Shown one piece after another: positions 1 to 13,921 of a DNA stretch of 37,995 bases (position 1 is its first letter; each line of letters begins with the position of its first letter). The translations under genes were made by a program, and so were the position numbers. The DNA lies in the IMG/VR virus record IMGVR_UViG_3300044666_000001, positions 1-37,995 of that record. One strand, 5' to 3'. The notes beneath the pieces are model-generated. The model was given only the letters and a program-made list of their open reading frames with translations, was not told the DNA's origin and ran no database searches. Origin of the DNA: a virus.

Positions 1-127
1 GGGGGGGAAGCAACGCAGCCACAGTGGGAGCGGGCAACCGGCCTACTCGCTGTGCCTCGCGCAAGACGGTTTCAGCCGAATCCTTGTCCCATCCAATGGA
101 AGCAACCCATTTCGCAGAAGTCCCAGC
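1..127. repeat. Terminal overlap, identical to 37869-37995; marks a circular contig
   Basis: The 127-nt string gggggggaagcaacgcagcc...gcagaagtcccagc is present at both window ends. A minus-strand ORF is in frame across the junction. Confidence 0.9.
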
Positions 128-544
128 AGAGCGGGCCTGCGAAAGAAGTCGCGCGTATGCGTCCTTGAAAGCCATGCGCGCGCCGATCTTGTCTCCGCCA
201 TTCAGGACCGGCCGAGCGATTTCGAATGCCTGCTGCATTTCCTCCGTCCATACCACCGTGTCACGTTCGCTCAGCGCTGCAAGCGACATCGACCACGCCT
301 CATCGGACTCCGGACGACCGTCATTCCCCGCAATCTGCGCAATGATGTCAGCAGGCTTCGGGGCATAGCGACCGTGCACCGGATCCTTAATCGCAGCGTC
401 AATGCCCTGGCGAACAACCGCCATCGGGTATTGCGCCAAAGCCCGAAAGAACATCGCCTTTGCAGTCGGAGCAAGCGTTTTTCCATGCAGCGAATACGCC
501 GCGTCCAGCAACTCGGCAAACACGTCGAAATCATCTTCAGACAT
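1..544 (-). CDS. N-terminal part (181 codons) of a 247-aa early protein that continues at 37669-37868; replication-module position, weakly lambda P-like
   Basis: ATG at 544 overlaps the stop of the upstream gene by 8 nt. My translation MSEDDFDVFAELLDAAYSLHGK...REAQRVGRLPAPTVAALLPPP joins in frame to the ORF at 37669-37932. It lies directly downstream of the replisome-organizer-like gene. Confidence 0.7.
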   Translation of the reverse strand, partial: MSEDDFDVFAELLDAAYSLHGKTLAPTAKAMFFRALAQYPMAVVRQGIDAAIKDPVHGRYAPKPADIIAQIAGNDGRPESDEAWSMSLAALSERDTVVWTEEMQQAFEIARPVLNGGDKIGARMAFKDAYARLLSQARSAGTSAKWVASIGWDKDSAETVLREAQRVGRLPAPTVAALLPP

Positions 545-1304
545 CGATCACCTCGTGTTGTGGCCTATGGCCGAAAAGCAACGCCTTGGCAGCAGCGTTG
601 TCAGCTTCGCGCTGTGCTGGCATCGGAACGCCGTTGAAACGCCCGCGTGATTCGCTCGCTCTCGCAGGTGGCGCAGCGTCCTGTGCACGGCAGAGCCAGT
701 TCGTCAGGAAACGGGCGTAGTTCGATTTTTTGTTTTTCGGGTTGGCAATGACCCAAGCGGCAGCTTTCGAAAGCTCCGCGTCCAGGCTAAGGGCTGGATA
801 GGCTTCAGACCACGTGGACCGCTGCACATCGGAAATGCCGGTCCACTTGCCATGAGCGTCGAGCGCAATCGCGTTCGGCGCTGAAGAAGCGTTAGCTTCT
901 TCTTTCTTCTGTTCTGTATCTGTTCTGTTCTGTTCTAGGGCGTTACTGGAACGTTTCTGTAACGTTTCATTGTTTCCGCCCTGCTGTTTCTGCTTCTCTC
1001 GATACCTGCGAACCCGCTCTGTGCTTGAATCTGACTCATATTGGCGCTTGCTCCAGTTGAGCAAATTCCAGTCGGGATCGATAAAGCCACGACGCATGAA
1101 AACGTCTTTCGTCTCTGCCAGTTCCTGCTCTGAAACGCGCATCGCAAACGCAATCGATGTTTCACGCTCCGTTACATGAAACGTTTCAATACCGTTACTG
1201 CATTGCAGGCAGAACAACATGACGAGGCGACGCTGCATGGCTTCACTCATCATTTGTACCTTCGGGTCGGAAGCAAATTCCGAGTACATACGGAACCAAT
1301 CCAT
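537..1304 (-). CDS. Replication initiation / replisome-organizer-like protein
   Basis: 255-aa ORF. The N-terminus MDWFRMYSEFASDPKVQ...LFCL resembles phage replisome-organizer N-terminal domains. It sits in the lambdoid O-gene position downstream of ninB/ref and is translationally coupled to both neighbours. Confidence 0.6.
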   Translation of the reverse strand: MDWFRMYSEFASDPKVQMMSEAMQRRLVMLFCLQCSNGIETFHVTERETSIAFAMRVSEQELAETKDVFMRRGFIDPDWNLLNWSKRQYESDSSTERVRRYREKQKQQGGNNETLQKRSSNALEQNRTDTEQKKEEANASSAPNAIALDAHGKWTGISDVQRSTWSEAYPALSLDAELSKAAAWVIANPKNKKSNYARFLTNWLCRAQDAAPPARASESRGRFNGVPMPAQREADNAAAKALLFGHRPQHEVIDV

Positions 1305-1654
1305 TACGCGCTCCCGATCATCCTGGCAGCGATCAAAGCGCCGTCAGGGACTTCCATGTCTCGTTGCTGTAGCCACTCGATGCACCAGCGCAGCAAGTCC
1401 ATTTGCGTGCCATAGCGCTCTTCAAAGCGGGCCTTGTAGGGATGGACGGCAACCGCCGTGCCGTTGTCCTGGTGATGGCCACCACAAAGCGGCAGAACGA
1501 GCCAATGCGCGTCCGGCTTCGTGCGGCCGTCGATGTGATGCACTGATACGTAATCGTTGAATCCGCCTTCAAAGCGACACGCAACACAGCCGATATGACG
1601 GCATAAGTCATCGTGGAAATGCTTTTGAGCGGTTGTGGGAGCGCGGCCTTTCAC
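1304..1654 (-). CDS. Ref-like RecA-dependent HNH nuclease (recombination enhancement family)
   Basis: 116 aa with GCVACR...VHHIDGRTKP...LPLCGGHHQ...VHPYKARFEERYG, which matches the P1 Ref / lambdoid Ref-like HNH pattern. Confidence 0.7.
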   Translation of the reverse strand: MKGRAPTTAQKHFHDDLCRHIGCVACRFEGGFNDYVSVHHIDGRTKPDAHWLVLPLCGGHHQDNGTAVAVHPYKARFEERYGTQMDLLRWCIEWLQQRDMEVPDGALIAARMIGSA

Positions 1655-2064
1655 AAGTCAAACTCCACGCCTAGGTTATTTGCAGCCCACGCCTGCACCT
1701 GATTGACGTAGGTAGAGAACTCGCCCACGGTCATTTGAGTGGTGGACTTGCGCCGGGTGATGGTCGAGCCGTCCGGGAGATCAACGTCTTCGCAGATGCC
1801 GAATTTCAACGCGAACATTTCGTGCCACGCGTCCTTGTCAAACTGCTTGCCGTCTACCCATGCCTGCTCTGAGATATCGCGTAGAGTCACGCCCCAATAG
1901 AAGCGGTTCTGCTCCGCGTTGCGCTTCTTCTCGTCACTGGTGACGATCACGCGCAGTGGCTCGCCCTTATCGAGACATGCCTTAGCGTTCGCCTTGACGA
2001 AGACAAGGACGCTCGTCCAGATGGAAGGGCTACGCAGTTGGAATTCGCGGTAGAGCGCGGCCAC
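1651..2064 (-). CDS. ninB: NinB/Orf-family recombination mediator
   Basis: 137 aa with a GTG start preceded by GGAGG. The EQNRFYWGV and STTQMTVGEFSTYVNQVQAW motifs parallel lambda Orf (QNRKLWA, STSRMRVGEFAELLELIQAF). Confidence 0.8.
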   Translation of the reverse strand: MAALYREFQLRSPSIWTSVLVFVKANAKACLDKGEPLRVIVTSDEKKRNAEQNRFYWGVTLRDISEQAWVDGKQFDKDAWHEMFALKFGICEDVDLPDGSTITRRKSTTQMTVGEFSTYVNQVQAWAANNLGVEFDL

Positions 2065-2067
2065 TGC

Positions 2068-2142
2068 TCACCTCCAGAACATCCAATAGGTAACGCCGAT
2101 AACAACGAGAAGCGGCATGCAGGCCGTCATAACGAGATCCAT
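2068..2142 (-). CDS. Possible 24-aa hydrophobic peptide (MDLVMTACMPLLVVIGVTYWMFWR)
   Basis: Hand-translated. It fills the gap between the 2145 stop and the ninB start. There is no strong RBS. Confidence 0.2.
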   Translation of the reverse strand: MDLVMTACMPLLVVIGVTYWMFWR

Positions 2143-2144
2143 AG

Positions 2145-2351
2145 TCATTCCTCGTCATTCGGGACATTTTGTCCCTGCTTAGGACGCAGCAAATGCGGCA
2201 CTACCTTCGGATGAAGGACGCCGTATGCGCTCTTGAGGATGTGCATGCCGAAGTACTCGTCAGCGGGAATACCCTCAGCCGCAGCACGCGTGGCTAGGTC
2301 CGCCGCTTCAGGGATGGGCAGCTTTGCCGAAACGATCTGGTCATCGCTCAT
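2145..2351 (-). CDS. Hypothetical early protein (68 aa)
   Basis: ORF overlaps the upstream gene by 4 nt and lies in the PR operon. Confidence 0.6.
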   Translation of the reverse strand: MSDDQIVSAKLPIPEAADLATRAAAEGIPADEYFGMHILKSAYGVLHPKVVPHLLRPKQGQNVPNDEE

Positions 2352-2575
2352 ACAGCCACCCGGCGCGGGACACTTCGGCCCGAATCGTCACTGACTCCGA
2401 TCAGATCAGCAGGCAAAGTACCTACAGCACCGAGCAAGAACTGTTCGGTAATGCGGGCCATAGCAGCGGAATCGCTCTCGATGCCCTGCACAACCTTGAA
2501 ATGCTGGAGAGCTTCATATGCACGATCACGCAACCGTGTCTTTACTTCGTTACGAAATTCGGCTCGCTTTTTCAC
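2348..2575 (-). CDS. Hypothetical early protein (75 aa), in the cII-like position
   Basis: ORF overlaps the cro-like gene by 4 nt. The assignment rests on position only. Confidence 0.6.
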   Translation of the reverse strand: MKKRAEFRNEVKTRLRDRAYEALQHFKVVQGIESDSAAMARITEQFLLGAVGTLPADLIGVSDDSGRSVPRRVAV

Positions 2576-2769
2576 GCGTGCACCTCCGTGGGACGTGCCG
2601 CATCGAAATAAGACTGAAGGAGTTCAAGCTTCAAGACGCCCGGATTATCGATTCGACCTTGAGCGAACTTGGTCAGCCACCAATATGAGACGCCTGTCTG
2701 CTTGCAGATGTCGGGCCACTCCCCTTTACGGGCAGCAAGCTCGGTTCGTACTGAGATGATGAGAGACAT
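2572..2769 (-). CDS. Cro-like HTH DNA-binding protein
   Basis: 65 aa with the HTH segment ICKQTGVSYWWLTKFAQGR. It is the first gene downstream of a divergent promoter/operator region, with GAGGA 7 nt upstream of the ATG. Confidence 0.8.
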   Translation of the reverse strand: MSLIISVRTELAARKGEWPDICKQTGVSYWWLTKFAQGRIDNPGVLKLELLQSYFDAARPTEVHA

Positions 2770-2797
2770 TTGGGAATCCTCGAAAGGCTTTCCCTCA

Positions 2798-2826
2798 AAT
2801 CTAGCACTACATGGCTAGATATTCAA
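2798..2826 (-). promoter_or_regulatory. PR-like sigma70 promoter for the cro-like operon
   Basis: On the minus strand, TTGAAT (2826-2821) is followed by a 17-nt spacer and TAGATT (2803-2798), about 30 nt upstream of the cro-like ATG. Confidence 0.6.
2799..2820. promoter_or_regulatory. Operator OR-a, perfect palindrome ATCTAGC-N8-GCTAGAT
   Basis: The sequence atctagcactacatggctagat lies exactly between the -35 and -10 of the PR-like promoter and overlaps the -10. Confidence 0.75.
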
Positions 2827-2843
2827 GCACCACTTTGCTAGAT
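2822..2843. promoter_or_regulatory. Operator OR-b (TTCAAGC-N8-GCTAGAT)
   Basis: The left half-site matches 5/7 and the right half-site 7/7. It overlaps the PR -35 and sits 1 bp from OR-a. Confidence 0.6.
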
Positions 2844-2851
2844 GGAATTTG

Positions 2852-2857
2852 TAGACT
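2852..2857 (+). promoter_or_regulatory. Possible PRM-like -10 (TAGACT) giving a near-leaderless repressor mRNA
   Basis: Only 9 nt separate the hexamer from the ATG at 2867. There is no Shine-Dalgarno upstream of that ATG and the -35 is poor, as expected for an activated maintenance promoter. Confidence 0.3.
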
Positions 2858-2866
2858 GGCCTTATC

Positions 2867-3232
2867 ATGCTAGACACCAAAAAAATCCTCGCCGAGAACC
2901 TTTCGGCTCTCCTCGAAACACGACCTGATATCTCACGCCTGAATCTCTCAAAGCAGATTCAGGTAGCAGATGGGACGCTAGGCCGCATCAAGTACGGCAC
3001 GGGCAATCCAACGGTTGAAGTAATCGAGCAGATCGCAAGGTTCTTTAAGATCGAGCCCTGGCAGCTTTTAGTGCCTGCGCTCGGTCAGGGGCTTAAAGGT
3101 GCTAAGTGGCCGTTTACGTTCAGTCAGGACGATTTGAATCACTTGCCTCCCGAGGATTTAGACGAACTCGACCATCAGATTCGATACAAGATCGAACGAC
3201 ATATGGCTGTAAATCGCCGTGGGGCCGCGTAA
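2867..3232 (+). CDS. cI-like XRE-family HTH repressor without an S24 peptidase domain
   Basis: 121 aa. The N-terminal HTH (NLSKQIQVADGTLGRIKYGTGNPTVEVIEQIARFF) is divergent from the cro-like gene. The ~50-aa C-terminal tail has no Ser/Lys protease motifs. Confidence 0.85.
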   Translation: MLDTKKILAENLSALLETRPDISRLNLSKQIQVADGTLGRIKYGTGNPTVEVIEQIARFFKIEPWQLLVPALGQGLKGAKWPFTFSQDDLNHLPPEDLDELDHQIRYKIERHMAVNRRGAA

Positions 3233-3318
3233 GGGGACCACCGCGCGGCCCAGCCAAGATCATCCAGTTCAAACCGCGACAACGGGGAGAAAGCGAGCCT
3301 ACATAACTCGCCTGAAAG

Positions 3319-3344
3319 AGCCGCCACATGGCGGCTAAATTTTT
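3319..3344 (+). terminator. Putative intrinsic terminator after the repressor gene
   Basis: Stem AGCCGCC (3319-3325) pairs with GGCGGCT (3330-3336) around the loop ACAT, followed by AAATTTTT. Confidence 0.5.
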
Positions 3345-3351
3345 CTCTACC

Positions 3352-3373
3352 ATCTAGCATTTAAGTGCTTGAC
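3352..3373. promoter_or_regulatory. Operator OL-a (ATCTAGC-N8-GCTTGAC)
   Basis: Same half-site family as the OR operators. It overlaps the -35 of the PL-like promoter. Confidence 0.6.
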
Positions 3374-3396
3374 AATTTTTCGGCCGCCCCTATACT
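3369..3396 (+). promoter_or_regulatory. PL-like sigma70 promoter for the early-left operon
   Basis: TTGACA (3369-3374) is followed by a 16-nt spacer and TATACT (3391-3396), about 33 nt upstream of the ATG at 3429. Confidence 0.7.
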
Positions 3397-3414
3397 AGCC
3401 ATACAGTGCTAGAA
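3393..3414. promoter_or_regulatory. Operator OL-b (TACTAGC-N8-GCTAGAA)
   Basis: CTAGC-N8-GCTAG core. It overlaps the -10 and the expected transcription start. Confidence 0.6.
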
Positions 3415-3418
3415 AACA

Positions 3419-3431
3419 GAGGACAGCCATG
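3419..3431 (+). repeat. RBS-ATG junction GAGGACAGCCATG, 12/13 identical to 4516-4528
   Basis: Read by eye. The two copies bracket the repeat-protein gene. Confidence 0.6.
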
Positions 3432-4517
3432 CAACCCACCAGCAGCACCCTTGATCTCGACCAAATCATTCTGAGCGCCGGAGGCCATGACGCCAACAGC
3501 GGCCAACACTGCCTGCTCGAAGTTGTGAGCATGTTTGCAGGCGAACCATTCGGAGATTCGCCCATATGCGTCGATCCGGTTCTCGCGGCGTTCGGTCGTG
3601 CCTGGAACGACGGTATGCGCACTGATGAGGAACGCGCTCAACTGAAGAAGTACATCCCCCTGCTCGTAGGCACCGCTGGCTCAAAAGAACTTTCGGAAAA
3701 GCGCTCGTGGATGGCCTTCGACTGGCTCGTGCGCGTGCATTGCGCTGCGTGGCTAGCACTCACGCCCGCGCTGAAAGTTCATGCTGACATTTTGATCTCG
3801 CTTCCAGTGATCACTTGCAAGGCTGAACTCGATATCGCGCTTCCTAAGATCAATGAGGCACGGGACGCCGCAGGGGGCGCCGCATGGGACGCCGCACGGG
3901 ACGCCGCACGGGACGCCGCATGGGACGCCGCAGGGGGCGCCGCATGGGACGCCGCACGGGACGCCGCACGGGACGCCGCATGGGACGCCGCAGGGGGCGC
4001 CGCATGGGACGCCGCATGGGACGCCGCACGGGCCGCCGCACGGGCCACCGCATGGGCCGCCGCACGGGCCACCGCATGGGCCGCCGCACGGGACGCCGCA
4101 TGGGACGCCGCAGGGGACGCCGCATGGGACGCCGCACGGGGCGCCGCACGGGCCACCGCATGGGACGCCGCACGGGCCGCCGCACGGGCCACCGCATGGG
4201 CCGCCGCATGGGACGCCGCAGGGGGCGCCGCATGGGACGCCGCACGGGCCGCCGCACGGGCCACCGCATGGGCCGCCGCAGGGGACGCCGCACGGGACGC
4301 CGCATGGGACGCCGCAGGGGGCGCCGCATGGGACGCCGCACGGGCCGCCGCACGGGCCACCGCATGGGCCGCCGCAGGGGACGCCGCACGGGGCGCCGCA
4401 CGGGCCGCCGCACGGGCCACCGCATGGGCCGCCGCAGGGGACGCCCTTGAATCCACCGTTAAAACCTTGCAGGTAAATGCGCACGAATTGTTCTCGCGCA
4501 TGATCGCCGCGAAGTGA
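3429..4517 (+). CDS. Orphan protein: ~144-aa N-terminal domain plus 48 tetrapeptide repeats [W/R/G][D/A/G][A/T]A plus a short C-terminal helix
   Basis: 362-aa ORF with GAGGA 5 nt upstream of the ATG. It is the first gene after the PL-like promoter, lies on the same strand as all downstream early genes, and its stop at 4515-4517 is 8 nt before the next ATG. I do not recognise the N-terminal domain. Confidence 0.8.
   Translation: MQPTSSTLDLDQIILSAGGHDANSGQHCLLEVVSMFAGEPFGDSPICVDPVLAAFGRAWNDGMRTDEERAQLKKYIPLLVGTAGSKELSEKRSWMAFDWLVRVHCAAWLALTPALKVHADILISLPVITCKAELDIALPKINEARDAAGGAAWDAARDAARDAAWDAAGGAAWDAARDAARDAAWDAAGGAAWDAAWDAARAAARATAWAAARATAWAAARDAAWDAAGDAAWDAARGAARATAWDAARAAARATAWAAAWDAAGGAAWDAARAAARATAWAAAGDAARDAAWDAAGGAAWDAARAAARATAWAAAGDAARGAARAAARATAWAAAGDALESTVKTLQVNAHELFSRMIAAK
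3861..4445 (+). repeat. Tandem array of 48.75 copies of the 12-nt unit NGGGNCRCCGCA
   Basis: I walked the array unit by unit. There are no indels and 9 of 12 positions are invariant. Only position 1 (T/C/G), position 5 (A/C/G) and position 7 (G/A) vary. Exact higher-order copies are 3885-3944 = 3945-4004 (60 nt) and 4221-4292 = 4317-4388 (72 nt). Confidence 0.97.
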
Positions 4518-4528
4518 GGCCAGCCATG
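4516..4528 (+). repeat. RBS-ATG junction GAGGCCAGCCATG, partner of 3419-3431
   Basis: 12/13 identity with 3419-3431. Confidence 0.6.
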
Positions 4529-4846
4529 AACACCATCCCCGATCAAGTAGAAGGCGACACGATGAAGTACTTGAGCCAGCAAGAAGCGGCTGATGCTCTG
4601 GCTCGTGCGCGCGAGAAGGCAGCAGATTGCGTAGATCCCATTGCTGCATTGGAACGTCTGCGTGAGAACGACTTTGCGACTTATCTCGAACTGCACGACG
4701 CTTTTGTGCGCAAGGACGCTGCTCGTCAGCATGAGATCGAGCAAGAAGCCTTCGAGACGGAGATCAACCTGTTTATCGAGAACGAGCCTAGGCTGCTCGA
4801 TGAATTCCGCCGCTCGCGTATTGCTGCGGAGGTGCGTCATGGCTGA
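4526..4846 (+). CDS. Hypothetical early protein (106 aa)
   Basis: ATG at 4526 with GAGG 6 nt upstream (the ORF track begins at GTG 4514). Helical, charged sequence. Confidence 0.7.
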   Translation: MNTIPDQVEGDTMKYLSQQEAADALARAREKAADCVDPIAALERLRENDFATYLELHDAFVRKDAARQHEIEQEAFETEINLFIENEPRLLDEFRRSRIAAEVRHG

Positions 4847-5144
4847 TAAGCACACGCCGGGGCCGTGGAAGGCCGAACTGTCTTGCGTCGGCGAATATCG
4901 CGGGCTCGAAATCAAAGGGAAAAATGGTCAATGGATCGGCAACGTTCACGCTAACAAGAATCGTGACGACCGAATTCCTCAAGCTGAAGCCAACGCCCGC
5001 CTGATCGCCGCCGCACCGGAACTGCTGGACGTTCTGATGCTTGTCGAAGAACGATTCGGAGCACATTGCGCGGATCCGTTGCCTTTGGATCTGTGCGAAC
5101 TAATCGTCGCCGCCCTCTCCAAAGCACGAGGAGAGCAGGTATGA
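4839..5144 (+). CDS. Hypothetical early protein (MADKHTPGPWKAE...)
   Basis: ATG at 4839 overlaps the upstream stop. The HTPGPW N-terminal motif recurs in small phage early proteins. Confidence 0.65.
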   Translation: MADKHTPGPWKAELSCVGEYRGLEIKGKNGQWIGNVHANKNRDDRIPQAEANARLIAAAPELLDVLMLVEERFGAHCADPLPLDLCELIVAALSKARGEQV

Positions 5145-5335
5145 GCGAGATCAAGAATGGTGGCCCCGGAGAGATTCCGCCTGTTCCTGTGACGTGCCCA
5201 GGAGACGTATTTGAAAACGCAATTCGGGCAGCGGGTGTTGTCAATGCTTGCGAGTGGTTCGGTCACGCACCCGACAGCGAGTTCACCGCGGAGACGATCC
5301 GCACCCTTGAAGAGCGTTCGAGAGGTGCCGCATGA
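5141..5335 (+). CDS. Hypothetical early protein (64 aa)
   Basis: ATGA overlap with the upstream stop, and GAGGAG upstream. Confidence 0.6.
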   Translation: MSEIKNGGPGEIPPVPVTCPGDVFENAIRAAGVVNACEWFGHAPDSEFTAETIRTLEERSRGAA

Positions 5336-5532
5336 ACATCGACCACTGCCTACGCTGCGGCCAAGCGGGCCATTGCTCGGAGGATTGCCCGCTGAGTGGC
5401 GCACGGGTATCCCGTGGTGCATCTATCGCCTACGCCGGTTTCCTGCTCCTCGTAGCCCTTCTTTCTCTGGTTGGTGTCGCTGCTAAGTGCGCTGATGCCT
5501 TCGCATATCCGACTTTCGGGAGTTTCAAATGA
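5332..5532 (+). CDS. Small protein with a CCHC zinc knuckle and a C-terminal transmembrane helix
   Basis: CLRCGQAGHCSEDC fits C-x2-C-x4-H-x4-C. It is followed by the hydrophobic stretch IAYAGFLLLVALLSLVGVAA. ATGA coupling to the upstream gene. Confidence 0.6.
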   Translation: MNIDHCLRCGQAGHCSEDCPLSGARVSRGASIAYAGFLLLVALLSLVGVAAKCADAFAYPTFGSFK

Positions 5533-5723
5533 ACACCTATCCCAAGAACTTCGACCTGCGCAATGCGGACTGCTCGATTCTGAGCGCGGATGAGAAACAG
5601 CAATGCCGTCTGAGCGGATTGGCACAGAAGGCCAAGGAGGCGCTTGGCGCTAAATGGATGCTGCACAAGTCGCACGCACCGGCTAAGGGTCAATACAACA
5701 ACTGCGGCACTCGGATTGCTTGA
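5529..5723 (+). CDS. Hypothetical early protein (64 aa)
   Basis: ATGA overlap with the upstream gene. Confidence 0.55.
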   Translation: MNTYPKNFDLRNADCSILSADEKQQCRLSGLAQKAKEALGAKWMLHKSHAPAKGQYNNCGTRIA

Positions 5724-5730
5724 GGGAACC

Positions 5731-5946
5731 ATGATCGAAACTGAAGACGCATTCTGGCTTGTTTGGTCTCCGACCGGTACTACTCCCCCTACTCATCGCC
5801 ATGAGCACTATCACCTTGCCCAAACAGAAGCGGAGCGACTGGCTCGTCTTTATCCGGGGGAAGAGTTCTACGTGCTGATAGCCCAAACCAAACGTGTTGT
5901 GTGTGACATGAAGCGAATTGACCTTGTCGCTCCTATCCCATTCTGA
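5731..5946 (+). CDS. Hypothetical early protein (71 aa)
   Basis: ATG at 5731 with GAGGGA upstream (the ORF track begins at 5644). Confidence 0.6.
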   Translation: MIETEDAFWLVWSPTGTTPPTHRHEHYHLAQTEAERLARLYPGEEFYVLIAQTKRVVCDMKRIDLVAPIPF

Positions 5947-5953
5947 GGTGGTC

Positions 5954-6730
5954 ATGACTACTGCAACTGAATTCGATGTTGTCGACGTGGCGGCTAAGGA
6001 ACCCGCACAGCGCGCCATTGCCACGGCTCGCTCTGCCACGCCAGCAGACCTCCTGCGCATCGCTGTTGAAGGGGGCGCCGATCTTGACCGCCTGGAAAAG
6101 CTGATGGGCCTGCAAGAACGTTGGGAAGCTAAGGAGGCCAAGCGAGCGTACGACGCAGCTTTCGCAGCTTTCAAGGCTGAGGCGATCACGATCCTGAAGG
6201 GCCGTAAGGTCACCGACGGGCCGCTCAAGGGGAAGTCTTACGCTGAACTTCACGACATTGTGAATGCGGTCACGCCTGCCCTTTCTAAGCATGGCCTTTC
6301 GTCGTCGTGGAAGCTCACGATTGATGAAAAGGACTGGATGCAAGTGACGTGCTATCTGCGCCACGTCAATGGCCACGAGGAAAGCGTTTCGATGGGAGGG
6401 CCTCCTGACGCAGGAGGCGCTAAGAACGCCATTCAGGCCCGGGCAAGTACCAAGACCTATCTTGAGCGCTACACCCTCAAGGCAATCACCGGCCTGTCTG
6501 AGCAGGATGACGATGACGATGGTCGCGGTAACCAACGTGCTGATATGGCAGTACGCGACGGCTGGATTACGAAGGCCAAAGAAGCCAAGACCGCTGCTGA
6601 TCTTGAACAAGTTTGGAAGGACGGAGTTAAAGCTATCAAGGCTACTAAGGACATGGGCCTGTACAACGAGTTCAAGCACATTGTGGAGAGCAAGGGTGCT
6701 GACTTCAAAGCCGCTGAGGACTCGAAATGA
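5954..6730 (+). CDS. erf: ERF-family single-strand annealing protein
   Basis: KSYAELHDIVNAVTPALSKHGL and NAIQARASTKTYLERYTLKAITGLSEQDDDDDG parallel P22 Erf (YKYRSCEDILEGVKPLL and SSYARKYCLNGLFGIDD). ATG at 5954 follows GAGGTGG. Confidence 0.8.
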   Translation: MTTATEFDVVDVAAKEPAQRAIATARSATPADLLRIAVEGGADLDRLEKLMGLQERWEAKEAKRAYDAAFAAFKAEAITILKGRKVTDGPLKGKSYAELHDIVNAVTPALSKHGLSSSWKLTIDEKDWMQVTCYLRHVNGHEESVSMGGPPDAGGAKNAIQARASTKTYLERYTLKAITGLSEQDDDDDGRGNQRADMAVRDGWITKAKEAKTAADLEQVWKDGVKAIKATKDMGLYNEFKHIVESKGADFKAAEDSK

Positions 6731-7359
6731 TCCTAATCCAGTGCGAACAAGGCTCTCCCGAATGGCACGCAGCCCGTACCGGCGTGATTACGGCCAGCAA
6801 GTTTCGTGAAGCTCTTGAGACGACGCAGAAAGGTAAACCGACATCCAAATCGTCTCTCTATGCCGCCCAGGTAGCGATTGAGCGTATCAGCGGTCAGCCG
6901 TGCGACGAAGGTTTCAATTCCTGGCAGATGAAACGCGGTCAGGAAATGGAACCCATGGCGCGCATGGAGTACGAGGCACAAACGGGAAACTTCGCCAGCG
7001 AATCTGGAATCGTCCTGACTTATGACCGTCTGTTTGGCTACTCCACAGACGGCTTGGTTGGTGACGACGGCCTTATCGAAATCAAATCGCTTGTGAGTGC
7101 CATCGGGGTTTTGGAAATGTGGCGCGACCGTGACCTGTCCGAGTACATGCATCAGATCCAAGGCGGTTTATGGCTCACTGGTCGAAAGTGGTGTGACTTC
7201 GTGATGTATGCACCTCAGCTAGAACCAGTGGGAAAGCAACTGTTTCGCATGCGCGTCGAACGAGATGACAAATTCATAGATGAAATGGTTAAGAAGCTTC
7301 TGGACTTCTCTGACATCGTAAACGAAAACGAACATATTTTGCGCGAGAAAGTCGCCTGA
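6727..7359 (+). CDS. YqaJ/lambda-exonuclease-like recombination exonuclease
   Basis: GSPEWHAARTGVITASKF N-terminus and IEIKS motif. ATGA coupling to erf. Confidence 0.85.
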   Translation: MILIQCEQGSPEWHAARTGVITASKFREALETTQKGKPTSKSSLYAAQVAIERISGQPCDEGFNSWQMKRGQEMEPMARMEYEAQTGNFASESGIVLTYDRLFGYSTDGLVGDDGLIEIKSLVSAIGVLEMWRDRDLSEYMHQIQGGLWLTGRKWCDFVMYAPQLEPVGKQLFRMRVERDDKFIDEMVKKLLDFSDIVNENEHILREKVA

Positions 7360-7436
7360 CTTCCGAGGCTACCCGGCGGCCGTAGCTGCTCTATGAGCGG
7401 CAAAGAGCCGGGATCAATTTACCAAAGGAGAAATCC

Positions 7437-7790
7437 ATGACTCAAGTGCAAATCCCGCCGCTCAACGATGGCGAAATCTACCTCTGCGGCATCGTCGATG
7501 CGAATGGCGACGTCGAGCATACCGTCATCGTCGCAATCAACAACGAGCGCGGCGAATGGCAGGAACAGATGGAGTGGGCGAAGTCCCTCGGTGCCGACCT
7601 GATGACGCGCCCCGAGCAGGCCATCGCCTTCGCGAAGCACAAGGACCGCTTCGAGGAGGCTGGTTACTGGAGCAATGAGGATGCCGGCGACGGCTTCGCC
7701 TGGTGTCAGCACTTCAGCTATGGTGACCAGCGCTACGGCTTCCAGGGCACCCGGTTGCGCGCGGTGGCCGTCCGCAGATTCAAAAATTGA
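7437..7790 (+). CDS. Hypothetical protein, possibly DUF1566-like
   Basis: 117-aa ORF with AAGGAG upstream. WAKSLGADLMTRPEQ...YWSNE resembles the DUF1566 pattern, but only weakly. Confidence 0.6.
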   Translation: MTQVQIPPLNDGEIYLCGIVDANGDVEHTVIVAINNERGEWQEQMEWAKSLGADLMTRPEQAIAFAKHKDRFEEAGYWSNEDAGDGFAWCQHFSYGDQRYGFQGTRLRAVAVRRFKN

Positions 7791-7818
7791 GTCATTCAAC
7801 CATTTGAACGGGATCTGT

Positions 7819-8103
7819 ATGAGCTACATGGACCCACGCCCCGAAGGGCTGAATACGGAGAAGGCTCCGGAGTCTGTGGTGGAGACGCTGCGCACGCCTG
7901 ACCTCAAGACCGTGACGCCGCTCACGAAAGAAGAATGGATCAAGCGAGCAGCCGAGACACTGGAGCGTGTGTCTCCCGGCTGGACTCCAGATGCTTTGGC
8001 CGACTATGCCGACAGTCTCTACAACAAATATGTGACGGATTGCCCCGACTGCGATAACTTGCCGGAAGAAGCCGTTGCCGAAGACATTACATATTGGGAC
8101 TGA
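7819..8103 (+). CDS. Hypothetical early protein (94 aa)
   Basis: ATG at 7819 avoids overlap with the 7437-7790 gene (the ORF track begins at 7675). Confidence 0.6.
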   Translation: MSYMDPRPEGLNTEKAPESVVETLRTPDLKTVTPLTKEEWIKRAAETLERVSPGWTPDALADYADSLYNKYVTDCPDCDNLPEEAVAEDITYWD

Positions 8104-8107
8104 TGCC

Positions 8108-8800
8108 ATGATGAATCTCAAGACCGTGACGTTTGGCGGCCACACGCTCGAAGCAATCAACGAGTTCGTGGCGCATTCCAAGAACACAGGCGAGTCGATT
8201 GATCAGATCACGATGGATGACGGGACAAGCGCAGCCATTATCAAAGACATGATCGCTATGCTCGCCGCCGCCCCCGCGCCAGTCGCACAGAGCGCAGGGC
8301 AAGAGGCTGGAGGCAGCGTAGGCGCGTGGCTTCGCACCCAACTTCTCGATTATTGCGAAGGTGCTTGTGCGCCTGTACCGGATGTCGACGACCTGTTCGC
8401 TATCGCTGATCGAGCAAAACGTAAATTCGACGCTGCGCCCGTGAATGGCGGCGAGCGCGACGACATCGAGCAGCGAGCCAATGCGCCACACGAACCGATT
8501 GGCGATGGCACAGGACGTTGTGCGCTATGCGGTTCTGATGACGAGAGCGCCCCGATTCACAAGCAAGTCGCAGGGTTGGGCCAAGCGCGTATGGACGACA
8601 CGGCAGCGCGGTACGCGTGGATCGTTTCGAAAGCACGGTTCAGTACGGCTCCCGGTCAGCCCACTGTGATGAGCCTCTCTCTCGAGTTGCCCGCCACTAA
8701 CCATAATCCGCATACCGATTGGATGGGCGAGCGCTTCGTCGAGAGCTTCAACCGCACAATTGATAGTGCACGTACCGCCGAGGACGACGATGACGAATGA
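8108..8800 (+). CDS. Hypothetical early protein (230 aa)
   Basis: ATG at 8108 lies just after the upstream stop at 8103. Acidic C-terminus. Confidence 0.65.
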   Translation: MMNLKTVTFGGHTLEAINEFVAHSKNTGESIDQITMDDGTSAAIIKDMIAMLAAAPAPVAQSAGQEAGGSVGAWLRTQLLDYCEGACAPVPDVDDLFAIADRAKRKFDAAPVNGGERDDIEQRANAPHEPIGDGTGRCALCGSDDESAPIHKQVAGLGQARMDDTAARYAWIVSKARFSTAPGQPTVMSLSLELPATNHNPHTDWMGERFVESFNRTIDSARTAEDDDDE

Positions 8801-9701
8801 GCAAATCAAGCTCGCGCTGGAGTCAGCCGACTGGTCTGGGGCGTCTATTGGAAACAAAGCGCTCATCAAGGCCGCCATTGCTGCCCTCTCGTCTCCCGCG
8901 AAGGTGGGCGGGGATGAGCGGGATGCTATTACGCGCGCGAAAGGGATTCTTGATCTGGTGGATGACTATCACGAGCGCCCGAGTCAAGCGACACGCACGA
9001 AGCTGCGCATTGAACTGACCGACGAATTCAGCGAACTGCTCGCATATGCCGCGCTGTCGGCGGATGGCAATGCCCAACCGGAACACACGGCAATCTACTT
9101 GTCGAAGCGCCTCGTAGGTCACGACGGCGAAGCATCGTTCATCCAAGCACACATCAATCAAGCCGTGAGCGAAGCCGTAGAAGCGCTGTCGGCGGATGGC
9201 GGCAACACCATTATGCAGAACAAAGTCGCATTCCTGAGACAGCATGGCGCAGTTGACGCTGGCACCATGCTTCGCGATGGGAACCTTATCACCCTCGTCA
9301 CCAATCAGGGCCGTGTCGAACGGTTCGACGCAAATGAATTCGGCGGCATCCAGCTATTGGCGGATGGCGGGGAGGACAAGCGGGATGCGGTCGCGTATCT
9401 CGATCTAGGCGCCGGCGGCTACATGGACATTGGGACCGAACTGACGGACGAACAACTTGCCGCGCTGCCAAAAGGACGCCACATGCTTGGGATCATCGGC
9501 ACTTATGGCGTGGACGGATACCACCGTGCCTCGCCGTCGATGTATGACGGGAAAGATGCTGAACGGCTCCAGTTCGCTATGCACAATTGGGGGCCGCGCG
9601 AGTTCGCTATGCATGTTCTGCGCCGTGGCGGAAACGGCGATTTGTCTGATTGCCGATCGTTTGTCGACGCCATTGCCGCCAAGGCGAAGGGGGATGCGTG
9701 A
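8790..9701 (+). CDS. Hypothetical early protein (303 aa)
   Basis: ATG at 8790 (MTNEQIKLALES) overlaps the upstream gene by 11 nt. Confidence 0.65.
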   Translation: MTNEQIKLALESADWSGASIGNKALIKAAIAALSSPAKVGGDERDAITRAKGILDLVDDYHERPSQATRTKLRIELTDEFSELLAYAALSADGNAQPEHTAIYLSKRLVGHDGEASFIQAHINQAVSEAVEALSADGGNTIMQNKVAFLRQHGAVDAGTMLRDGNLITLVTNQGRVERFDANEFGGIQLLADGGEDKRDAVAYLDLGAGGYMDIGTELTDEQLAALPKGRHMLGIIGTYGVDGYHRASPSMYDGKDAERLQFAMHNWGPREFAMHVLRRGGNGDLSDCRSFVDAIAAKAKGDA

Positions 9702-9934
9702 TGCTCAACTGGCTCAAATGGGTATTCGCTCGACAGGAAATGGAAACGCTCGAACGCTACCGAGTAAACATCACGCATGCACAGCGATGGCTCGGCGAAT
9801 TTCCTGACGCCTGCGATGCTCTCGACTATGTTCACGTCGAAAGCGAACAAACGTCGGCGATGAGCATTTCATTGCTTCGCGACAAGATGCGCAACCGGCG
9901 CGTCGCCACGCAGGCAGCGGAGGAGCGGAAATGA
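9701..9934 (+). CDS. Hypothetical early protein (77 aa)
   Basis: ATG at 9701 forms a TGATG overlap with the upstream stop. Confidence 0.6.
   Translation: MLNWLKWVFARQEMETLERYRVNITHAQRWLGEFPDACDALDYVHVESEQTSAMSISLLRDKMRNRRVATQAAEERK
9916..9932 (+). repeat. 17-bp direct repeat AGCGGAGGAGCGGAAAT, partner at 10149-10165
   Basis: Exact match read by eye. It covers the gene end and the RBS. Confidence 0.9.
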
Positions 9935-10170
9935 ATAAGAAAGCTAGTGCGGTTCCACACGTTGTCGAAATCCCACTGCACGAATTGATTGACTCGCTTG
10001 TATGTCTCGGGTTCGACGAAGTAATTGAGTTCATCAAGAAACTGGACGAGGCGTGCCAGGATTGGGACGTTACTGAAACGCTTCACGACTATTTCGTTGA
10101 AGAAATGAAAAAGCTCCACGAAGACGAAGTTCGACTTGAGGAGTTGGAAGCGGAGGAGCGGAAATCGTGA
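9931..10170 (+). CDS. Small, highly acidic protein (79 aa; about 22 D/E against 9 K/R)
   Basis: ATGA-coupled ORF that is visibly more AT-rich than its neighbours and is bracketed by the 17-bp direct repeats. Confidence 0.7.
   Translation: MNKKASAVPHVVEIPLHELIDSLVCLGFDEVIEFIKKLDEACQDWDVTETLHDYFVEEMKKLHEDEVRLEELEAEERKS
10149..10165 (+). repeat. 17-bp direct repeat, partner of 9916-9932
   Basis: Exact match. Confidence 0.9.
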
Positions 10171-10523
10171 ACAAGCTTATCGACGCAACACAGACGCGCC
10201 AGACCGACAGACGCTATGCGATCTATCCAATGGTGACTCTGGAATCCGGGATGCGCGAGGTCGGCTCTCCCAGGCTCCCATTGGCGTATGAATACGCGAC
10301 AAGTGCGACGTTATGCGCTACGTCCATCGGGGCGCCCGGAAGTTCTGAGCGGATGCACGTCCATGCATTGCGAGCAATTCTCAACATGGTCTATGGCGAA
10401 GCCGTCAGCCGCCTATACGAGATCCAGCGCGCGGCGGAGGCTGGTGATGTGGTGGAGGTCATCAATCTGTGCGAGTTGCTGCGAGAAGACATGCTCACGC
10501 CCACCGCAAAGGACCGCTCATGA
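10167..10523 (+). CDS. Hypothetical early protein (118 aa)
   Basis: GTG start in a GTGA overlap with the upstream stop. Confidence 0.6.
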   Translation: MNKLIDATQTRQTDRRYAIYPMVTLESGMREVGSPRLPLAYEYATSATLCATSIGAPGSSERMHVHALRAILNMVYGEAVSRLYEIQRAAEAGDVVEVINLCELLREDMLTPTAKDRS

Positions 10524-10534
10524 GACAGAACGAG
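10519..10534 (+). repeat. 16-bp direct repeat CATGAGACAGAACGAG, partner at 10718-10733
   Basis: Exact match. Both copies contain an ATGA stop/start junction. Confidence 0.9.
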
Positions 10535-10539
10535 GAGGA

Positions 10540-10722
10540 ATGATGATCTTCACAATCGGCCTAGTCGTGGCAATAGTCTTCTGGACTCTAGGGAAGGCGA
10601 CAGCCCCGGTCCTTTTTGAGGAACCGCCCGAGATTCACTACATCTTCTCTCTGTTGTTTCTGGTTGGCATTCTTACGATGGTCATCTCACTTTGCATGCT
10701 GGCTTGGAGATATCTTCCATGA
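10540..10722 (+). CDS. Small two-TM membrane protein (~60 aa)
   Basis: MMIFTIGLVVAIVFWTLGK...IFSLLFLVGILTMVISLCMLAW, with GAGGAGG immediately upstream. Bracketed by the 16-bp direct repeats. Confidence 0.6.
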   Translation: MMIFTIGLVVAIVFWTLGKATAPVLFEEPPEIHYIFSLLFLVGILTMVISLCMLAWRYLP

Positions 10723-10733
10723 GACAGAACGAG
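10718..10733 (+). repeat. 16-bp direct repeat, partner of 10519-10534
   Basis: Exact match. Confidence 0.9.
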
Positions 10734-11705
10734 ATCATTCTGGGCGACTACGGCGATACGGTACACGTCGTCTCGATGTCCGGCGGCAAAGACAGCACCG
10801 CGACAGCGATCCTCGCTATCGAATTACACGGCCGCGAGAATTGCCGCTTCGTGTTCGCCGACACCGGGAATGAACACGAAGCCACCTACGAATACGCCCT
10901 TGGTTACTTGCCCGAGGCACTCGACATCGCCGTCGAAGTGGTAAGTGCGTCCTTCGCAGATGAGTTTGCGACGAAGCGCGCCAATTTGTCGCGAATTGCT
11001 TCGGGCGAGCCGGAAAGCGCCGTATATGGGAAGCGCGAGTTCAAATATCGTTGGACGCCGGAAGCGGCCGCACAGGCCCTCGAACTGCTGGTGCCCACCG
11101 GAAACCCTTTCCTCGATCTGTGCATGCTGAAAGGTGGATTTCCGTCGCGGCGCCGCCAGTTCTGCACCGAGCACTTGAAGCGCAACCCGTTGACCGAATT
11201 CCAGCTCGGGCTGATCGATGAAGGACGGCACGTCGAGTCGTGGCAGGGGGTCCGCGCCGACGAGTCAGAGGCTCGCCGCTGGCTTCCGTCGTACGAGTAC
11301 CTCGGCGGAGGAATGGCGATCCATCGACCGATCCTACGATGGACCGTTGACGACGTTTTCGAGGCTCATCGCGCTTACGGCATCGTGCCCAACCCTCTCT
11401 ACCGACAGGGCATGAGCCGCGTCGGGTGCATGCCCTGCATAAACTGCGGAAAAGCCGAACTGACCGAGATTGCTCGCCGCTTCCCTGAGCACATCGAGAG
11501 GATTGAATTATGGGAACGGCTGGTGCAAAGCGTCACCCGGCCTGATTCACCGGCAACGTTCTTTCATCACCAGAAGAATGGTGCCGCCGGTGTGAGGGCT
11601 GCCGTATCGTGGGCACGCACATCGCGTGGAGGACGACAATTCTCGCTACTGACCGATCTTGCGGAGCCGACGGCCTGTTCCTCGGCTTACGGGCTATGCG
11701 AATGA
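10719..11705 (+). CDS. PAPS-reductase-family (PP-loop ATP pyrophosphatase) protein
   Basis: The PP-loop motif VVSMSGGKDSTA lies near the N-terminus. ATG at 10719 forms an ATGA overlap (the ORF track begins at 10692). Confidence 0.85.
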   Translation: MRQNEIILGDYGDTVHVVSMSGGKDSTATAILAIELHGRENCRFVFADTGNEHEATYEYALGYLPEALDIAVEVVSASFADEFATKRANLSRIASGEPESAVYGKREFKYRWTPEAAAQALELLVPTGNPFLDLCMLKGGFPSRRRQFCTEHLKRNPLTEFQLGLIDEGRHVESWQGVRADESEARRWLPSYEYLGGGMAIHRPILRWTVDDVFEAHRAYGIVPNPLYRQGMSRVGCMPCINCGKAELTEIARRFPEHIERIELWERLVQSVTRPDSPATFFHHQKNGAAGVRAAVSWARTSRGGRQFSLLTDLAEPTACSSAYGLCE

Positions 11706-11721
11706 CCACCCACCCGGCCAC

Positions 11722-11736
11722 GGCCGAAGCACTGAA
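11722..11736 (+). repeat. 15-bp direct repeat GGCCGAAGCACTGAA, partner at 12199-12213
   Basis: Exact match read by eye. Confidence 0.9.
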
Positions 11737-11752
11737 CTGTCAGAGGTACATC

Positions 11753-12169
11753 ATGCCGATCAAGCCAGAGAACAAGGCCCGCTATCCGGCCAACTGGAAG
11801 CAGATACGCGCGCAGGTGCTGGAGCGCGCGCAGCACAAGTGCGAGCAGTGCGGTGTTGCGAACCGGGCGCGCATTGTGCGCGGTACCGGCCCGGACGCCG
11901 ACACGTACATGACCCACGATGCTGAAGTCTATGACGCAGACACCGGCGAATACCTCGGCCTGCGCCGCATGAGCGATTACCACTGCAACGGCAACGTAAC
12001 CGACATCGTGCTCACGATTGCGCATCTCGACCACCAGCCCGAGAACTGTGTCCTCGAGAACCTGAGAGCGTGGTGCCAGCGATGTCACCTGCGGTATGAC
12101 GCCCGGCACCACGCCGCGAACGCAGCAGCCACACGCCGAGCACGGAAGGCCATAGCAGAACTGTTTTGA
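11753..12169 (+). CDS. HNH endonuclease
   Basis: CEQCG...IAHLDHQPENCVLENLRAWCQRCHLRYD is an HNH/zinc-finger signature. ATG at 11753 follows GAGG; an alternative start is at 11702. Confidence 0.85.
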   Translation: MPIKPENKARYPANWKQIRAQVLERAQHKCEQCGVANRARIVRGTGPDADTYMTHDAEVYDADTGEYLGLRRMSDYHCNGNVTDIVLTIAHLDHQPENCVLENLRAWCQRCHLRYDARHHAANAAATRRARKAIAELF

Positions 12170-13821: not shown

Positions 13822-13921
13822 ACGATCCAGCGATGCCCAGCAGCAGAGCGCCATTATGGCCGCCATCAACTGGAAAAAGCGCAGTATGCTAAATTTCGGC
13901 TTTCCAAAAGATCAGGCAAAA

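Follow-up and report, generated by a model that had tools for sequence, protein, structure and literature searches.

What does a temperate phage gain by placing, first behind its early-left operators, a gene whose product carries a long four-residue repeat? The question is raised by a 362-aa open reading frame (ORF) with an ATG start on the plus strand (3429–4517) of the 37,995-nt viral DNA analysed here, hereafter the window. The gene order around it is an HTH repressor, a terminator, operators with a promoter, the repeat gene, ERF, a YqaJ exonuclease and an integrase.

An earlier note on this DNA had placed the gene directly downstream of a near-consensus promoter, with operators of the type used at the cI/cro switch overlapping both its −35 and its −10 element, and had called it the first gene of the early-left operon; all of this was borne out. 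The early-left control region (3353–3413, plus strand) holds the promoter TTGACA-16-TATACT (3369–3396, with the −35 at 3369–3374 and the −10 at 3391–3396), which agrees with the consensus at 11 of 12 positions, is the sole match within 2200–4700 and lies 32 bp from the ORF. The 5′ leader is only ~26 nt long, and a Shine-Dalgarno sequence, AGAGGA (3418–3423, plus strand), can be read 5 nt before the ATG. The operator consensus, TCTAGCAC-N4-GTGCTAGA, matched four times in the 38-kb window (starting at 2800, 2823, 3353 and 3394) against 0.11 matches expected, and none of 100 shuffles gave four. Two of the sites are neighbouring 20-bp operators (2800–2819 and 2823–2842) in the divergent repressor/cro-like (cI/cro) intergenic region, supported by the inverted-repeat pairs I1–I4 as well as by the consensus, and a weaker third candidate in that region lies at 2856–2874; the other two sites overlap the −35 (3353–3372) and the −10 (3394–3413) of the repeat gene. 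Upstream, a 121-aa repressor-like gene with a Cro/CI-type HTH (2867–3232, plus strand) matches Pfam HTH_3 (E 1.4e-4; 22.3 bits, slightly below the 23-bit gathering score) and HTH_26, lacks an S24 peptidase domain and is transcribed toward the repeat gene. Between the two genes, a hairpin with a 7-bp stem of which six pairs are GC (3319–3336), followed by a T-run (AAATTTTTCT), forms a terminator-like element (3319–3346, plus strand) that would end the repressor transcript and part it from the repeat gene. Because the operators cover both the −35 and the −10, they should silence the gene in lysogens and leave it among the first to be transcribed on induction or infection, a timing that is read from the sequence. 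The ORF is thus evidently a genuine coding gene, and it forms the first cistron after the operator-flanked promoter of a repressor-controlled leftward early operon, the position of N in lambda, in a P22-like temperate phage.

The encoded protein has three parts, all on the plus strand: an all-alpha N-terminal head (aa 1–144; 3429–3860), supported by AlphaFold2 (AF2) confidence (pLDDT 94–98), conservation across 270 sequences and profile matches; a repeat array or stalk (aa 145–336; 3861–4436); and a family-conserved C-terminal helix, GDALESTVKTLQVNAHELFSRMIAAK, with the stop codon (4437–4517), recognised by its pLDDT of 97–98 and its motif. Tandem Repeats Finder reported a period of 12 with 49.0 copies over 3858–4445 (score 756). 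Reading the array in frame gives exactly 48 12-bp units of eight types, every one of which fits [W/R/G][D/A/G][A/T]A, as the earlier description of 48 uninterrupted tetrapeptides had it. The GC content of the array is 83%, compared with ~56% in its flanks, and all six frames are open across it. Variation among units is confined to nucleotides 1, 5 and 7, where all changes are non-synonymous, with zero synonymous variation; the repeat is approximately neutral overall (21 Arg, 23 Asp). Gly occupies the first position of units 2, 7, 12, 22, 31, 36, 39 and 44, and units 24 and 45 are RGAA. A recurrence of Gly-containing units about every five units, as had been proposed, is thus roughly correct as a spacing but not as a structural period, since it reflects recent segmental duplications of 5 to 8 units. 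The units are arranged in a higher-order pattern and the reading frame through them is unbroken; no array measured is longer than these 48 units, and the ~50 close homologues compared have 3–20 units, fewer than half as many. An exact-sequence look-up did not find the window protein in the public collection, and the contig of a relative breaks inside its array.

The protein had been taken for an orphan, a view contradicted by 67 close homologues (E 4e-82 to 1e-12) and by distant relatives in the thousands. With a profile of the N-terminal domain, ~7,900 cluster representatives (50% identity) were matched at a threshold of E ≤ 1e-3, of which 5,118 also passed E ≤ 1e-10, and 1,248 matches were obtained in a database of 5.8 billion sequences. 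On these comparisons the protein clearly belongs to a very large, uncharacterised phage and prophage family, which occurs in thousands of prophages, from Burkholderiales and from other Proteobacteria, as well as in at least one actinomycete genome. Relatives were found by tblastn in only two phage records and two plasmid records, and megablast of positions 1–12000 of the window against 50,697 phage genomes gave no match. The three-part architecture of an all-alpha head, an Ala-rich period-4 region and a conserved C-terminal helix is common to the members, and the frame runs unbroken through all three parts in more than 1,000 homologues. The C-terminal motif is L.PT...LQ.SA..L..RM (in the window, LESTVKTLQVNAHELFSRMIAAK), with Q348, L354 and M358 near-invariant.

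Catalogued phage clusters do match the protein: the whole sequence hits phrog_8332 (E 2.4e-20, residues 89–206), 14 of 19 head domains hit phrog_13065, and the N-terminal core falls in PHROGs 13065/3416. These are identifiers without function, structure or literature, annotated in PHROGs as 'unknown function', and the structural matches in BFVD are likewise uncharacterised phage proteins (E 3e-5 to 1e-3). Scans of the window protein and 52 family members against Pfam, NCBIfam and PADLOC gave no match, in agreement with the earlier statement that the N-terminal domain could not be assigned to any family. Profile searches against PDB sequences returned only low-complexity noise for the full-length alignment and zero matches for the head alone, and Foldseek searches of PDB with both AF2 models described below gave best E values of 6 and 2, that is, no fold match and no characterised family. 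No similarity to characterised anti-host or anti-defence proteins emerged in the family, PDB-sequence or PDB-fold searches, nothing was found in Rfam and tRNA scans, and literature searches on phage tetrapeptide repeats, phrog_8332, Ala-rich hypervariable prophage repeats and early-operon anti-defence returned nothing relevant. The family is therefore new in the sense that it is not connected to anything characterised, which is not the same as a demonstrated new mechanism. A family without curated entry, structure, literature or PDB fold match nevertheless sits in the early operons of thousands of prophages, and assigning it a role would account for a sizeable part of viral dark matter. In view of where the gene lies and when it should be expressed, it may serve host takeover or anti-defence by a new mechanism.

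The strongest conservation of the protein is in the head. Across the 270 sequences, G18, H20, C28, E31, G38, E39, D43, P45, C47, F55, W59, N60, D61, R69, R92, D98, W99 and R102 are near-invariant, and from these a cluster can be assembled that comprises His20-x7-Cys28, Glu31, Glu39, Asp43-x-Pro-x-Cys47, Asn60-Asp61 and several Arg residues. Head residues 4–87 are homologous to a clade of hypothetical Streptomyces proteins (WP_181411838; hhalign probability 99.5%, E 1.7e-22), of which four proteins at three loci were inspected. The clade shares the His-x7-Cys, Glu, Gly, Asp-x-Pro-x-Cys, Asn/Asp-Asp and Arg positions with the phage head, whereas it lacks the repeat array and the family C-terminal helix and differs in helices 4–5. 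Its context is cellular and not phage: the gene directly follows a PiT/PHO4 phosphate-transporter gene at all three loci and lies inside an arsenic-type cluster at two of them. Because the His/Cys/acidic cluster is conserved and these distant relatives keep company with PiT and arsenic genes, the head hints at a putative metal- or ligand-binding site, and the tie to the PiT/arsenic-cluster proteins suggests that a small-molecule or metal site may have been conserved.

The central region is far more variable. It is present in all 100 members measured, ranging from 13 to 191 aa (median 68 aa) with 52% Ala, and the Ala autocorrelation over these members is +0.47, +0.44 and +0.43 at lags 4, 8 and 12. 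This period-4, 52%-Ala character is kept across Proteobacteria and Actinobacteria even where the units have diverged and are no longer identical, and its persistence in very divergent members suggests that the stalk does more than link head and C-terminal helix passively. The Ala and Arg codons are fixed within a homologue but differ from one homologue to the next, and the DNA of the unit changes under a peptide pattern that stays the same. Burkholderia multivorans alleles have heads that are 97–100% identical and arrays of 7–27 units in differing orders. These comparisons establish, at the level of sequence, that the 12-bp array evolves in concert, with units homogenised within a gene but turning over fast in number and order, and that it changes by slippage or unequal recombination. 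The repertoire of W/R/G combined with D/A recurs across genera, and W→R and R→W pairs of adjacent units show a 1.4-fold enrichment. One actinomycete member has (Ala-Val)n in place of the array, the family member P0065 has a very short central region, and the entry for P0188 is frameshifted across the array. The four-residue array is thus a natural experiment in the concerted evolution of a coding repeat and in the length tolerance of a helical hairpin.

That hairpin is predicted from models. For a short homologue that is 90% identical to the window protein (P0001), AF2 gave a pLDDT of 91.6 and a pTM of 0.85, with helices at residues 131–156 and 162–196 forming a two-helix antiparallel hairpin that turns at a central Gly unit. 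For the window protein itself the head and C-terminal helix were modelled at pLDDT 94–98 and the stalk helices at 54–87; the stalk appears as three helices of 58–94 residues that break at only 2 of the 15 Gly-containing units and do not come together as a simple hairpin. On these predictions the repeat would stand out from the head as an antiparallel hairpin of helices, and the C-terminal helix would pack back onto the head. The proposal of an alpha-solenoid built from ~20-residue helices was not supported by this modelling, which gave either the two-helix hairpin or the three long helices, and no Pfam repeat family was matched. A comparison of the two arms for size complementarity (Trp opposite Gly) over 134 arrays gave no consistent signal at any register. 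The strict period of 4 is not a canonical coiled-coil period, which tells against the reading preferred below.

The genomic neighbourhoods of the homologues are for the most part those of early genes. Eight of nine contexts inspected are phage early operons, and at about half of ~60 loci a RecT, ERF, YqaJ or DUF3799 gene, sought by tblastn with known recombination proteins, lies within 6 kb on the same strand; no conserved partner gene was found among the neighbours. Whether homologues always head a PL-like operon had been posed as a check, and they do not: they also occur after RecT/YqaJ, before RecT and between endolysin and holin. The last arrangement, outside an early operon, is that of Ralstonia phage RS-CA1.

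Several known systems invite comparison. Like the window gene, those for lambda N and P22 gp24 are first after an operator-controlled early-left promoter and lie downstream of a repressor gene and a terminator; their products are disordered, Arg-rich peptides of ~100 aa, whereas the window protein has 362 aa and a folded head. A homologue of N was rejected on the lack of sequence similarity (Pfam, E ≤ 1) and on the homologues not being tied to the N position. The inhibitors of host nucleases lambda Gam and P22 Abc2 are stand-alone early genes, the window family is often near RecT/ERF and exonuclease genes, and both have elongated helical elements, although a stalk that varies so much in length is ill suited to plugging a DNA channel of fixed size; a Gam/Abc2 relative found no match in Pfam or among PDB sequences, and the best Foldseek E values against PDB were 2–6. 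A DksA/TraR/Gre factor, which should join a Zn-finger or Gre domain to a coiled-coil hairpin of set length whose acidic tip is conserved, was dismissed for want of a Pfam match and because the stalk is 13–191 aa long with a non-conserved tip. An alpha-solenoid of the HEAT, TPR or Sel1-like kind would be expected to stack helix-turn-helix units of ~20–40 residues, as opposed to the long helices of the AF2 models, and no such repeat was matched in Pfam.

Short-period repeats themselves have precedents. The KPAA/AAKP tetrapeptide-repeat proteins AlgP and PhaF of Pseudomonas and its relatives are Lys/Pro-rich, basic DNA binders, and the pentapeptide-repeat proteins Qnr and MfpA, with a period of 5 and a beta-helix fold, show that a short repeat can act as a DNA mimic. 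Both groups resemble the window gene in having short-period, in-frame, GC-rich arrays that encode Ala-rich peptides. The KPAA proteins differ in their Lys/Pro-rich, basic character, since the units of the window combine Trp/Arg/Gly, Asp/Ala and Ala-Ala with almost no net charge. The pentapeptide proteins differ in period and fold from a repeat of period 4 that is predicted to be helical. A pentapeptide-repeat DNA mimic of the A(D/N)LXX type was rejected on these grounds and on the lack of a Pfam match.

We put a probability of roughly 50% on the reading that this is an early three-part protein in which the head is functional and the stalk a tolerant rod, and which binds or neutralises a host component early in lytic growth. 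The operator-controlled promoter would switch the gene on first at induction or infection; the head, with its putative metal- or ligand-binding site, would be the functional module; the stalk would be a rod able to accommodate different lengths and surfaces; and the protein, from a stand-alone gene, would bind or neutralise a host component in the service of host takeover or anti-defence. An early host-binding role, anti-host or anti-defence, is our best guess. The stalk could instead be the effector itself, its hypervariable, Trp/Arg/Asp-striped helical surface serving as a mimic, decoy or recognition surface, with an arms race against a host factor or immune sensor selecting for shuffling. 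We regard this as unlikely. Variation limited to two or three nucleotide positions of each unit, always non-synonymous in spite of homogenised synonymous sites, would be expected of such an effector, as would the near-identical heads bearing wholly different arrays, the repertoire recurring across genera and the period kept in diverged units, and the 1.4-fold enrichment of Trp-Arg neighbours fits an i/i+4 Trp-Arg ladder. The near-neutral charge, however, is unlike that of classic acidic DNA mimics, conservation peaks in the head, and both the range of stalk lengths and the (Ala-Val)n replacement argue for weak sequence constraint; moreover, the NGG and GNC variants are one mutation apart, and mutation and drift in an unstable array could yield the pattern. 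Less probable again, and offered as speculation, is a new class of early effector that would unite the two, with a putative metal- or ligand-binding head on a hairpin whose recombining 12-bp array reshuffles length and Trp/Arg/Asp surface, allowing temperate phages to follow or escape a host target or immune sensor that varies. If true, such built-in hypervariability would have a purpose analogous to that of diversity-generating retroelements or contingency loci.

The opposite view of the stalk, which we also doubt, is that the repeat is functionally irrelevant, a slippage-prone connector from helix 6 to the C-terminal helix whose 48 units are a neutral or mildly deleterious expansion or in part an assembly artefact. 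The wide length distribution with its very short members, the other simple repeats that fill the same slot, the contig that breaks and the entry that is frameshifted within the array, and the absence of the exact 48-unit protein from public data all speak for it. Set against this, a central region of at least 13 aa occurs in 100 of 100 members and keeps its period-4, Ala-rich character in both Proteobacteria and Actinobacteria, its median length is 68 aa and not the minimum, and the window array is ordered and in frame. If the protein filled the N/gp24 slot as a transcription factor, antiterminating or modulating RNA polymerase with its hairpin inserted in a polymerase channel as in Gre, DksA, TraR or lambda Orf73, this would account for the first position after the early-left promoter, for a globular, possibly metal-binding domain joined to a helical hairpin, and for the lack of a recognised N-like gene among the operon ORFs scanned. 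This reading is very improbable, given that Pfam has no match to N, Q, DksA/TraR or Gre even at E ≤ 1, that the length and tip sequence of the hairpin are not conserved, which is incompatible with a fixed channel depth, that homologues are found in a variety of positions, a lysis cassette among them, and that the 5′ leader is so short. We give hardly any credence to the view that the array works as DNA or RNA, through a set of cis-acting sites or a structured element, with an incidental reading frame: 49 near-identical GC-rich units do lie directly 3′ of an early promoter with six frames open, but in the homologues one frame runs from the conserved head through the array into the C-terminal helix, the peptide pattern outlasts changes in unit DNA, and Rfam has no match.

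Only in some Pandoraea prophages are homologues promoter-proximal, making the family gene the very first to be derepressed. The P. commovens and P. iniqua prophages carry the same terminator-promoter-gene cassette, and in P. commovens at least the operator-like repeats differ from those of the window.

The protein encoded by the ORF at 3429-4517 is a member of a huge uncharacterised family. Searching with its N-terminal domain alone (the head, 144 aa) returned 67 proteins, with E values from 4e-82 to 6e-12, from Pandoraea (up to 90% identity), Burkholderia, Cupriavidus, Paraburkholderia and metagenomes. A head-only profile matched 1,248 proteins in a word-indexed search, and an exhaustive HMM search resulted in 7,900 cluster representatives (50% identity) at E ≤ 1e-3 and 5,118 at E ≤ 1e-10; the protein is thus not the orphan that an earlier note, made by reading the DNA alone, took it for. 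The named matches are all "hypothetical protein", and the genome matches fall mainly in Burkholderiales, with some Actinomycetes MAGs. IMG/VR contains 39 family loci, and relatives occur in just 2 of 50,697 sequenced phages and 2 of 72,556 plasmids. PHROGs 8332, 13065 and 3416 match the family and are all listed as "unknown function". Sequence profiles from Pfam, NCBIfam, PADLOC and the PDB gave no match, nor did comparison of two AlphaFold2 models with PDB folds (best E of 6 and 2), and the structural matches in BFVD are exclusively uncharacterised phage proteins. The N-terminal domain, which the earlier note could assign to no family, thus fits no curated one, and no characterised family or solved fold is connected with the feature. 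The feature is found more widely, and has more structure, than had been supposed, and its appeal to specialists lies in the thousands of clusters, the hypervariable tetrapeptide stalk and a gene that heads an early operon.

Every member is built from the head, an Ala-rich central region and a conserved C-terminal helix (L.PT...LQ.SA..L..RM). Among 270 sequences, G18, H20, C28, E31, G38, E39, D43, P45, C47, F55, W59, N60, D61, R69, R92, D98, W99 and R102 of the head are near-invariant. The central region spans 13-191 aa (median 68) in 100 measured members, in which it consists of 52% Ala, 8% Asp, 8% Arg, 7% Gly and 7% Trp, with Ala autocorrelations of +0.47, +0.44 and +0.43 at lags of 4, 8 and 12; at 192 aa, that of the window protein equals or tops the longest of these. 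The AlphaFold2 model of P0001, a 198-aa Pandoraea eparura homologue (90% identical) with a short array, is confident (pLDDT 91.6, pTM 0.85) and has five head helices followed by helix 131-156, a turn at 157-161 on a central Gly unit and helix 162-196, and the repeat is therefore predicted to fold as an antiparallel hairpin in this homologue. In the model of the window protein, the head and C-terminal helix are as confident (pLDDT 94-98), and the 48 units form three long helices (131-188, 191-260 and 267-360; pLDDT 54-87) broken only at two GGAA units. The C-terminal helix is predicted at pLDDT 97-98, and we take it to fold back against the head. The protein is thus predicted to carry its repeat as a hairpin stalk on an all-alpha head, and neither model reproduces the solenoid of 20-residue helices envisaged earlier.

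Tandem Repeats Finder identified 49 copies of a 12-bp unit at 3858-4445, corresponding in frame to exactly 48 [W/R/G][D/A/G][A/T]A units of eight types (aa 145-336). Variation within the window array is limited to nucleotides 1, 5 and 7 of the unit; all variants alter the amino acid, synonymous sites are invariant in 48 of 48 units, and the array contains exact higher-order duplications of 60 nt and 72 nt. Ala and Arg codons are fixed within each homologue and differ between homologues (Ala pairs are GCC-GCA in the window, GCT-GCG in P. commovens and GCT-GCC in Cupriavidus; Roseateles and Rubrivivax arrays use GCC-GCC with AGG). The same two codon positions are polymorphic in all homologues compared. 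This pattern shows that the array is unstable and under concerted evolution by slippage or unequal recombination. Among seven B. multivorans alleles, head identity is 97-100%, but the arrays have 7-27 units in unrelated orders. In an actinomycete member (L027:5902-6975), the place of the xxAA array is taken by (GCAGTC)n, which encodes (Ala-Val)n/(Ala-Asp)n; the connector is thus a hotspot at which simple repeats in general expand. Since a P. commovens contig breaks off within the array (L010:6430-6515, also L030) and the database entry for the homologue P0188 is frameshifted across its array, copy numbers in this family are probably understated or garbled in short-read and error-prone assemblies, biasing public values low. 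Across the window array (3753-4915, both strands) none of the six reading frames is interrupted, which gives rise to spurious ORFs of 188-378 aa that gene callers risk mis-annotating, for example 3779-4915(-) and 3753-4649(-).

The ORF at 3429-4517 (+) is a real gene encoding 362 aa, beginning with an ATG 5 nt after the Shine-Dalgarno sequence AGAGGA. Its promoter is early and operator-flanked: TTGACA-16-TATACT at 3369-3396 (11 of 12 matches) is the sole sigma-70-like promoter found between 2200 and 4700, and the palindromic 20-bp operator TCTAGCAC-N4-GTGCTAGA has four copies in the 38-kb window, where chance predicts 0.11. By pattern match, two copies (2800 and 2823) lie between the divergent HTH gene and the cro-like gene, and the others overlap the -35 (3353) and the -10 (3394) of this promoter. 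The ORF, the operator-overlapped promoter and the 48 in-frame units had thus been described correctly, and we infer that the gene is off in lysogens and on early. The upstream repressor-like HTH gene (2867-3232, 121 aa) is closed by a terminator-like hairpin (3319-3336). Its product lacks the S24 (LexA-like) autocleavage domain, which related prophages of Pandoraea and Cupriavidus have in their cI-S24 repressors, and induction may therefore depend on an antirepressor or proceed by some other route.

The window represents a temperate phage of the P22-like type, whose portal, large terminase, head-closure and tail genes are on the minus strand. The plus-strand operon starts with ORF 3429-4517 and runs through genes for ERF (5918-6730), YqaJ exonuclease (6727-7359) and a phosphoadenosine-phosphosulfate (PAPS)-reductase-like protein (10692-11705; phrog_424, E 5e-67), which could serve DNA modification or an auxiliary metabolic function, to the integrase (12471-13580). 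The succession of HTH gene, terminator, operators and promoter, early genes and integrase therefore follows the lambda order of cI, terminator, oL/pL, early-left genes and int, with the ORF in the slot of N. The opposite, rightward early arm encodes a RecA-dependent nuclease and NinB (1304-2064, minus strand; PF16786, E 2e-28, and E 2e-14, respectively) and a DnaD-like helicase loader (537-1304). Adjoining the integrase is an O-antigen acetylase/O-acetyltransferase gene (13856-14980; phrog_3333/6705, E ~1e-39), which is typical of lysogenic (serotype) conversion.

The cassette of terminator, near-consensus promoter and gene recurs in P. commovens and P. iniqua prophages; the operator-like repeats flanking the P. 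commovens promoter differ from those of the window. Homologues do not consistently head a PL-like operon. The homologue is third after the cI-S24 repressor in P. eparura, follows DUF3799 and RecT in B. multivorans, and is one gene after RecT and YqaJ in Cupriavidus; at other loci it lies directly ahead of RecT and YqaJ or one gene ahead of DUF3799, or it opens a rightward operon beside divergently transcribed small genes. In Ralstonia phage RS-CA1 (PP316169; L001:5001-5657), the only cultured-phage homologue with annotation, it lies between endolysin and holin and not in an early operon. A RecT, ERF, YqaJ or DUF3799 homologue is encoded within 6 kb on the same strand at about half of some 60 loci, and no conserved adjacent gene was found among the homologue loci. 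The family gene is a stand-alone, mobile early-region gene rather than a fixed "first gene".

These results partly support the earlier interpretation. In the reading that we prefer, function would reside in the head, the stalk would tolerate changes in length and surface, and the protein would have a host-directed role. If the stalk were instead a hypervariable effector surface, its exclusively non-synonymous variation and persistent period of 4 would be accounted for, but the neutral charge of the array, its extreme range in length and the AV-repeat variant speak against this reading. The array might also be a neutral connector or an assembly artefact. Variable stalk length and gene position both argue against an N-like or RNA-polymerase-channel factor, and a DNA-level element is difficult to reconcile with protein-level conservation while the unit DNA diverges.

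The first ~80 residues of the head are homologous to a clade of repeat-free Streptomyces proteins (hhalign probability 99.5%, E 1.7e-22), which keep the His-x7-Cys, Glu, Asp-x-Pro-x-Cys, Asn/Asp-Asp and Arg residues. In three of three loci (L069:3959-4498, L070:5001-5624 and L071:5001-5564) the relative is directly downstream of a PiT/PHO4 phosphate-transporter gene. Two of these loci place it within clusters of the arsenic-resistance type, among genes for ArsR, a low-molecular-weight (ArsC-type) phosphatase, thioredoxin and thioredoxin reductase, to which one adds ArsA and the other an SBF-family (ACR3-type) transporter. This context and the kept residues suggest that the invariant His/Cys/Cys and acidic cluster form a candidate metal, metalloid or anion site in the head, and the uncharacterised Streptomyces gene is a candidate for an accessory role in the handling of phosphate or arsenate. 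A more distant relative, on a 1.1-Mb contig, adjoins a MIP channel gene.
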